A DNA stretch of 64,000 nucleotides from Escherichia coli (GTDB lineage: Bacteria; Pseudomonadota; Gammaproteobacteria; Enterobacterales; Enterobacteriaceae): assembly GCF_003334335.1 (NCBI RefSeq), contig NZ_QOWQ01000012.1. One strand, written 5' to 3'. A program made the position numbers and the translations under genes. The stretch's first letter is position 1; the number at the start of each line of letters is the position of its first letter. A model generated the notes under the pieces. It saw nothing but the letters and a program-made list of their open reading frames with translations, was not told the DNA's origin and did no database searches. Of the stretch, positions 37,221-38,183 are shown piece by piece.

Positions 37221-38183
37221 ATGCGTCAGACTAAAACCGGTATCCTGCTGGCAAACCTGGGTACGCCCGATGCCCCCACACCTGAAGCGGTAAAACGCTA
37301 TCTGAAACAATTTTTAAGCGACAGACGCGTGGTTGATACCTCACGGTTGTTATGGTGGCCATTGCTGCGCGGCGTGATTTTGCCGCTGCGCTCGCCGCGT
37401 GTGGCGAAGCTGTATGCCTCTGTCTGGATGGAAGGTGGCTCGCCGCTGATGGTTTACAGCCGCCAGCAACAGCAGGCGCTGGCACAACGTTTACCGGAGA
37501 TGCCCGTAGCGCTGGGAATGAGCTACGGCTCGCCATCACTGGAAAGCGCCGTAGATGAACTCCTGGCAGAGCATGTAGATCATATTGTGGTGCTGCCGCT
37601 TTATCCGCAATTCTCCTGTTCTACGGTCGGTGCGGTATGGGATGAACTGGCACGCATTCTGGCGCGCAAACGTAGCATTCCGGGGATATCGTTTATACGT
37701 GATTACGCCGATAACCACGATTACATTAATGCACTGGCGAACAGCGTACGCGCTTCTTTTGCCAAACATGGCGAACCGGATCTGCTACTGCTCTCTTATC
37801 ATGGCATTCCCCAGCGTTATGCAGATGAAGGCGATGATTACCCGCAACGTTGCCGCACAACGACTCGTGAACTGGCTTCCGCATTGGGGATGGCACCGGA
37901 AAAAGTGATGATGACCTTTCAGTCGCGCTTTGGTCGGGAACCCTGGCTGATGCCTTATACCGACGAAACGCTGAAAATGCTCGGAGAAAAAGGCGTAGGT
38001 CATATTCAGGTGATGTGCCCGGGCTTTGCTGCGGATTGTCTGGAGACGCTGGAAGAGATTGCCGAGCAAAACCGTGAGGTCTTCCTCGGTGCCGGCGGGA
38101 AAAAATATGAATATATTCCGGCGCTTAATGCCACGCCGGAACATATCGAAATGATGGCTAATCTTGTTGCCGCGTATCGCTAA
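37221..38183 (+). CDS. hemH: Ferrochelatase
   Basis: 320 aa; [38 protein letters not shown]... Confidence 0.95.

Follow-up and report, generated by a model that had tools for sequence, protein, structure and literature searches.

Convergent hemH/aes and cueR/ybbJ junctions of Escherichia coli as probable ordinary compact junctions with transcription-ending signals inside the partner gene

The convergent gene pairs hemH/aes and cueR/ybbJ of Escherichia coli, whose coding sequences meet with no nucleotide left between them, are in our view likely to be ordinary compact convergent junctions in which, because there is no spacer, each gene has its transcription-ending signals within its partner. 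The account that we favour has four steps. Transcripts of aes most likely end at an intrinsic terminator embedded in codons of hemH; judging from sequence and conservation, their 3′ end would fall at about position 38100-38105 of the window (i.e. the whole stretch of 64,000 nucleotides analysed here), so that the aes mRNA would carry some 80 nt of 3′ UTR, antisense to the final ~27 codons of hemH. The hemH gene would, in turn, be devoid of an efficient terminator of its own; as published bicyclomycin data show, its transcripts run untranslated and antisense into aes until, some 300 nt downstream, they reach a C-rich stretch and are stopped by Rho, and the base composition agrees with this. The same bicyclomycin data show that cueR transcripts run antisense through ybbJ into qmcA and meet a Rho stop about 590 nt downstream. 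Finally, and this is the weakest step of the account, qmcA-ybbJ transcripts would enter the 3′ end of cueR, where they would end, pause or be trimmed at a large palindrome, which probably acts as a pause site or as a 3′-end-protecting stem-loop and not as a classical terminator. The short sense/antisense overlaps expected from these steps would explain why both pairs have been listed as convergent excludons.

Gene layout and the frequency of tight convergent junctions

Window positions are converted to coordinates of the genome of E. coli K-12 MG1655 (NC_000913.3) by adding 460834, and the stretch compared directly with MG1655 (37000-39400) is 100% identical to it. According to the list of open reading frames and the RefSeq annotation, the ferrochelatase gene hemH (b0475) occupies 37221..38183 on the plus strand and ends with a TAA at 38181-38183, and the acetyl esterase gene aes (b0476) occupies 38180..39139 on the minus strand and ends with a TAG at 38182-38180. 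The TAG is the reverse complement of 38180-38182 and interlocks with the TAA of hemH, the two genes sharing the four nucleotides CTAA at 38180..38183, as can be read directly from the sequence. The same two sources place cueR (stop codon TGA) at 53159..53566 on the plus strand and ybbJ, an NfeD-like gene and the last one of the qmcA-ybbJ pair, at 53567..54025 on the minus strand, with a TAA stop codon appearing as TTA on the plus strand. Zero bases lie between the two stop codons and none is held in common, i.e. cueR and ybbJ abut rather than overlap. With the offset applied, the RefSeq boundaries of all four genes in NC_000913.3 coincide with the window coordinates. The layout proposed by the initial annotation, namely a 4-nt overlap of the 3′ ends of hemH and aes and an abutment of cueR (ending at 53566) and ybbJ (at 53567), is thus borne out by both the sequence and RefSeq.

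Junctions of this kind have been described before. In E. coli, 58 convergent overlaps were tallied by Lillo & Krakauer (2007, Biol Direct, PMC2174442), who ascribed a jump at length four in the distribution of convergent overlaps to four tetramers, namely CTAA, TTAA, CTAG and TTAG; hemH/aes belongs to this stop/stop class with its CTAA, whereas cueR/ybbJ, with no shared bases, differs from it. The same authors pointed out that rho-independent terminators of overlapping convergent genes must fall within the coding sequence of the partner, and located them for 23 of 116 genes. The aes hairpin described below and its conservation come from the present analysis, not from that study.

Convergent junctions number 12 in the window, their gaps measuring 51, 48, 30, 41, 211, -4, 132, 36, -2 (chiX/ybaP), 315, 0 and 62 nt. 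The gap is zero or negative in three of them and measures 30-62 nt in six more, and most convergent junctions of the window have space for one shared terminator at most. The hemH/aes and cueR/ybbJ junctions represent the tight end of a continuum, and their arrangement is statistically ordinary.

A terminator-like hairpin for aes inside hemH codons

A terminator scan, folding and conservation together point to an intrinsic-terminator-like element for aes on the minus strand at 38100..38147, within the codons of hemH. It begins 33 nt past the aes stop codon and consists of a 15-bp stem (38147..38110) followed by CAUAUUUUUU. The hairpin has a 6-bp GC core and an 8-nt loop, and the 38-nt hairpin alone folds with -22.7 kcal/mol; for the 91-nt stretch around it (38095-38185) the value is -28.3 kcal/mol (z = -3.2). 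A G+C-rich stem, a short loop and a position downstream of a stop codon, which count among the features of an intrinsic terminator, are thus all present. Among the 43 terminator-like matches (a hairpin plus a T-run) in the whole window this hairpin is the most stable one, surpassing the canonical terminators of hupB, cof, amtB/tesB, acrB and htpG.

The stem is encoded by the hemH codons for E-Y-I-P-A ... T-P-E-H-I, and a minus-strand fold as stable as the native one was reached by only 0.4% of 3000 synonymous recodings (P = 0.004). The U-tract (CAUAUUUUUU) includes six U's, but four nucleotides, CAUA, separate it from the extended stem, and in several Citrobacter species the tract is weakened or disrupted (CAUAUUGCUU). 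The numbers of matches returned by the terminator scan (4 against 3.0 expected, and 5 against 2.8) are non-significant alone, so that it is the strength, position, behaviour under recoding and conservation of the aes hairpin that make the case for it. No mapped 3′ end of aes is found at 4989xx-4991xx in the curated Term-seq data of Adams et al. (2021), for which low expression of aes may be the cause, and the TERMITe and SMRT-Cappable-seq supplements hold zero entries for hemH, aes, cueR, ybbJ or the coordinates of the junctions.

The initial annotation had stated that the two junctions leave no room for terminators. This is accurate as far as intergenic space is concerned, which is absent at hemH/aes and amounts to zero at cueR/ybbJ, but it does not extend to the signals themselves: a strong terminator-like hairpin for aes sits inside hemH codons, and a large palindrome occurs in cueR just downstream of ybbJ.

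The hemH/aes junction across relatives

A species-level scan with HemH yielded 72 loci. Escherichia, Salmonella, Citrobacter and one Trabulsiella have aes between hemH and gsk, in convergent orientation to hemH. The overlap measures -4 in 19 of the 26 loci with an intact aes (Escherichia, Salmonella, Citrobacter), the remaining ones having -10, -11, 0 or +2. Within E. coli, 263 genomes (~5%) have lost 13 nt near the 3′ end of their aes allele, which results in a 26-nt overlap with hemH (for example at L090 1279-1304, corresponding to window 38158-38183) and leaves the hairpin embedded in hemH in place. The deletion moves the aes stop codon, and the length of the overlap therefore drifts through shifts of stop codons.

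The aes hairpin is kept in all 28 aes-bearing loci, with stabilities from -16.7 to -22.7 kcal/mol; in these loci the minus-strand RNA forms 11-14 of the 14 pairs (mostly 13-14), as compared with 10-12 in the plus-strand RNA. Most relatives without aes (including Pluralibacter, Superficieibacter, Pantoea, Mixta and Rosenbergiella) have a degenerate stem (-3 to -14 kcal/mol), while the YIPALN motif of the protein is still present. Here gsk follows hemH after 55-76 nt and the spacer harbours a canonical terminator hairpin; the aes-less loci inspected downstream of hemH were L022, L025, L026, L030, L031, L048 and L071. Two Trabulsiella genomes without aes, those of Trabulsiella guamensis and one T. 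odontotermitis, retain the hairpin and also a remnant of the 3′ end of aes, located in a 107-nt spacer, which implies a secondary loss of the gene. The association of the hairpin with aes is confounded by phylogeny.

Some further loci deserve a mention. The aes gene seems to be truncated or degraded in E. albertii (L009; the best tblastn segment covers residues 1-211) and in Escherichia sp. E1V33 (L010; residues 1-83), with the hairpin and the U-tract intact in both. In Trabulsiella guamensis, where aes is missing, gsk (L022 3571-4875, plus strand) overlaps a minus-strand ORF (4872-5942) by 4 nt, and another stop/stop tetramer overlap has formed there (L022 4872-4875).

Plus-strand read-through and its limitation by Rho

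Transcripts leaving hemH and cueR on the plus strand do continue antisense to the neighbouring genes, and this read-through is bounded by Rho, as published bicyclomycin data document. Adams et al. (2021, eLife, PMC7815308) reported a Rho termination region antisense to aes at 499332, which corresponds to window 38498 and lies ~315 nt past hemH, and another antisense to qmcA at 514988 (window 54154; 588 nt past cueR), all such positions being derived from 800-nt windows and hence only approximate. The former has a Rho score of 4.07 (p = 6e-10) and upstream/downstream coverage of 79/24 in untreated cells as against 422/522 with bicyclomycin; the values for the latter are 15.4 (p = 3e-12), 61/5 and 68/86 (scores and p-values from Supplementary file 2 of the same study). 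The base composition of the plus-strand RNA fits both cases. A C-rich, G-poor, rut-like stretch antisense to aes extends over 38424..38623 (+241..+440 after hemH), with C/G ratios of 1.5-2.5, and window 38498 falls inside it. Similar stretches antisense to ybbJ/qmcA occupy 53807..54154, the ratio being 1.8-2.7 at +241..+400 after cueR and 1.65-1.93 at +441..+560, with the peak at 54154 located just downstream. Past both genes, the untranslated RNA that precedes the termination region is thus C-rich and G-poor, a feature of Rho-dependent termination. The list of Adams et al. includes no minus-strand Rho region within hemH or cueR.

Just past the hemH stop codon, in aes codons, there is also a weak plus-strand hairpin followed by GUUUUCAU (38204..38245), a leaky terminator at best. 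We rejected it as a terminator of hemH: its stability does not differ from that of shuffled sequences (z = -0.3) and the stem occurs only in Escherichia.

Antisense Rho regions are reported in the same dataset (PMC7815308) also at ybaM, ybaL, ybaP, copA and cnoX, that is at most other plus-strand convergent junctions of the window, and antisense sites make up 51.5% of all 1078 Rho termination regions. The spacers at the ybaM, ybaL, copA and cnoX junctions measure 62-315 nt, there being none at ybaP. Antisense transcription limited by Rho is therefore a generic pattern found at spaced junctions, too, with no special effect of a zero gap, and the read-through past hemH and cueR constitutes two ordinary instances of the suppression of antisense transcription by Rho (Peters et al. 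2012; Adams et al. 2021). The suggestion of the initial annotation that convergent transcription with no terminator in between implies antisense read-through into the partner gene consequently stands only in part. The transcripts do overlap according to the excludome discussed below, and the plus-strand Rho regions antisense to aes and qmcA speak for read-through as well; the step from missing space to a missing terminator is not supported, given the aes hairpin in hemH codons and the palindrome in cueR, and on the plus strand Rho bounds the read-through, as it does at junctions with a spacer.

The region upstream shows a comparable situation. A further plus-strand Rho region (Rho score 4.0) maps to 37226 (genome 498060), 5 nt into hemH, and an RNA 3′ end is present at 497939, downstream of adk and 116 nt upstream of hemH (Adams et al. 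2021, PMC7815308), which suggests that read-through from adk to hemH is limited by Rho.

A palindrome at the 3′ end of cueR

The last 25 codons of cueR contain a 75-nt imperfect palindrome (53489..53563; identified by folding and a recoding test), which on the minus strand occupies the stretch 4-78 nt past the stop codon of ybbJ. The minus-strand RNA folds with -41.2 kcal/mol (z = -4.2), and the plus strand folds too; in stability the native sequence beats 99.9% of synonymous recodings (P = 0.0007). As an intrinsic terminator the palindrome fails, the U-tract being absent on both sides, where CAUUCGCC (minus strand) and UGAUUAAG (plus strand) follow instead. The core stem is largely conserved in 14 loci, of which three are unassigned and the others represent Escherichia plus seven or more further named genera of enterobacteria. 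The stem covaries weakly (87.6% of cells paired versus 86.7% in shuffles), and only two pairs have changes on both sides among the 14 loci; both arms code for a conserved peptide. G-U pairs, numbering 53, exceed the 22 A-C pairs, which speaks mildly for the minus-strand RNA. The curated Term-seq data of Adams et al. (2021) have no mapped ybbJ 3′ end at 5142xx-5144xx. A promoter-like minus-strand site in cueR (53551..53522) was dismissed as being at chance level (1 found versus 1.8 expected).

Each of the 13 loci compared has a convergent gene, whatever its identity, tightly apposed to the 3′ end of cueR, with a gap of no more than +3. The gap measures -4 or 0 for an NfeD gene and takes values of -4, -47 or -53 where the partner is a DUF3142 gene; within E. 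coli the other partners are a pseudogene at 0 and a small hypothetical gene by an adhesin cluster at +3, the full range being -53 to +3 nt. The palindrome could be imagined as a conserved transcript-end element, devoid of a U-tract, that serves whichever gene converges on cueR, but we regard such a general role as rather improbable. Were it true, it would explain why cueR has no 3′ spacer in any of the genomes examined, and it could couple the mRNA of the copper regulator to transcription of its neighbour.

The cueR/ybbJ junction is itself polymorphic in E. coli. The abutment known from K-12 is found in 3204 of 5423 genomes, and in ~2200 genomes the match splits exactly at 53566/53567, with 0.8-2.6 kb inserted there (examples are L083 6108-6936 and L084 3365-5998). 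One example of the insert carries a frameshifted minus-strand pseudogene, the other hypothetical, lipoprotein and YadA-family adhesin genes; in these E. coli inserts the new neighbour is again located 0-3 nt from the cueR stop codon. No homology was found between the 829-bp insert of E. coli TUM13064 and the DUF3142 gene abutting cueR in Kosakonia.

Relation to known systems and alternative explanations

The class of overlaps, terminators embedded in the partner gene, the control of antisense RNA by Rho and both gene pairs themselves are already known. In particular, hemH-aes and cueR-ybbJ appear in Table 1 of the MG1655 excludome compiled with ExcludonFinder (Sanmartin et al. 2025, NAR, PMC12288877), which requires overlap in RNA-seq data in at least 50% of 58 samples and comprises 165 convergent excludons; for 146 of the 165, predicted terminators overlap the transcription unit of the neighbour. 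Both pairs are listed there on the grounds of transcript overlap, whereas the hallmark of the class is mutually exclusive expression. Another known system are bidirectional terminators of convergent genes, which in the descriptions we draw upon (Ju et al. 2019; Wang et al., bioRxiv 10.1101/2022.10.23.513370) are Rho-independent and feature a hairpin in the overlap. The two junctions resemble them in having a palindromic hairpin where the convergent units meet, but differ in that the hairpins lie inside coding sequences, termination on the plus strand depends on Rho and the U-tract-bearing aes element is one-directional.

These parallels bring with them alternatives to the account proposed here. 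One, which extends the mention of possible mutual interference in the initial annotation, holds that there is effectively no termination, that transcription of each gene proceeds far into the other and that the pairs act as regulatory excludons, expression of one gene repressing its partner through polymerase collision or through RNase III cleavage of the RNA duplex. The presence of both pairs among the 165 convergent excludons is in line with this notion, but when coding sequences overlap or abut such a listing is nearly automatic, and it is silent on regulation. The Rho regions do imply plus-strand read-through of 300-600 nt, and ~30% of the read density remains past 499332 in untreated cells (24/79 reads); nevertheless, this read-through is bounded by Rho, few reads are available (61-79 per 800 nt) and the same antisense Rho pattern characterizes junctions of the window with spacers of 62-315 nt. 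Considering also the strong terminator-like hairpin 33 nt past the aes stop codon, and the fact that anticorrelated expression of hemH-aes or cueR-ybbJ was not found in the searchable literature, we deem a regulatory excludon unlikely at these junctions. Collision-driven bidirectional termination, i.e. pausing of polymerases from both directions at the palindromes and their release by head-on and trailing collisions with no need for a U-tract or Rho, appears to us very unlikely. It would accommodate the ability of the palindromes at both junctions to fold on both strands and the missing U-tract of the cueR one, and hairpins in the overlap region of convergent pairs are a feature of that model. 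Collision-type terminators are a poorer fit, however, because the plus-strand ends at both junctions are Rho-sensitive, contrary to the description of such terminators as Rho-independent, and because the palindromes, on the plus strand, are located upstream of the stop codon in sequence under translation and should be unwound there by ribosomes.

It might also be argued that the hairpins have no function at all and are by-products of conserved peptides and codon usage, termination being either diffuse and Rho-dependent, or absent. Both hairpins do reside in conserved protein motifs (in HemH and in the CPGDDSADC...GCCHH segment of CueR), the search for mapped 3′ ends was negative, the cueR palindrome covaries weakly, and the link between the hairpin and aes is not only confounded by phylogeny but also blurred by the persistence of the hairpin in aes-less Trabulsiella. 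Yet conserved peptides do not readily account for native folds far more stable than those of synonymous recodings (P = 0.004 and 0.0007), for substitutions that preferentially preserve minus-strand pairing via G-U, or for the aes-less relatives that retain YIPALN but not the stem, and a minus-strand Rho region was detected neither in hemH nor in cueR. We therefore consider functionless hairpins improbable and prefer the account in which the ends of the transcripts are encoded in the partner gene.

If this account is correct, termination signals need not be lacking where intergenic space is, a conclusion that matters little beyond housekeeping. Where bacterial genomes are compact, the codons of a neighbouring gene can harbour a terminator, and that sequence would then be under a double constraint, with Rho clearing the untranslated antisense read-through. 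In genomes with aes, or with a remnant of it as in two Trabulsiella, hemH is without the canonical terminator possessed by the outgroups and has the terminator-like hairpin of aes in its codons, and the hemH/aes junction may serve as a teaching example or for testing predictors of terminators that leave coding regions out of account.

Other junctions in the window

The third junction of the window with no positive gap is that of chiX, an sRNA gene (46370-46453) that shares 2 nt at its 3′ end with the end of the convergent coding sequence of ybaP (46452-47246). The 48-nt gap between amtB and tesB (13419-13466) contains a classical bidirectional intrinsic terminator, consisting of a single hairpin, GCCGGAGGTGAAAACCGTCCGGC, with T-runs on both strands. 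The widest convergent gaps after mscK/ybaM, those of gsk/ybaL and ybaQ/copA, are occupied by REP-type elements matching the Rfam family naRNA4 (40613-40690 and 47751-47929, respectively); the Rfam scan, performed on the whole window, returned no family at the hemH/aes or cueR/ybbJ junction. An overlap of the opposite orientation exists between the divergent genes tesA and ybbA, the 5′ ends of which share 33 nt (58899-58931), and this pair is listed by ExcludonFinder as a divergent excludon.
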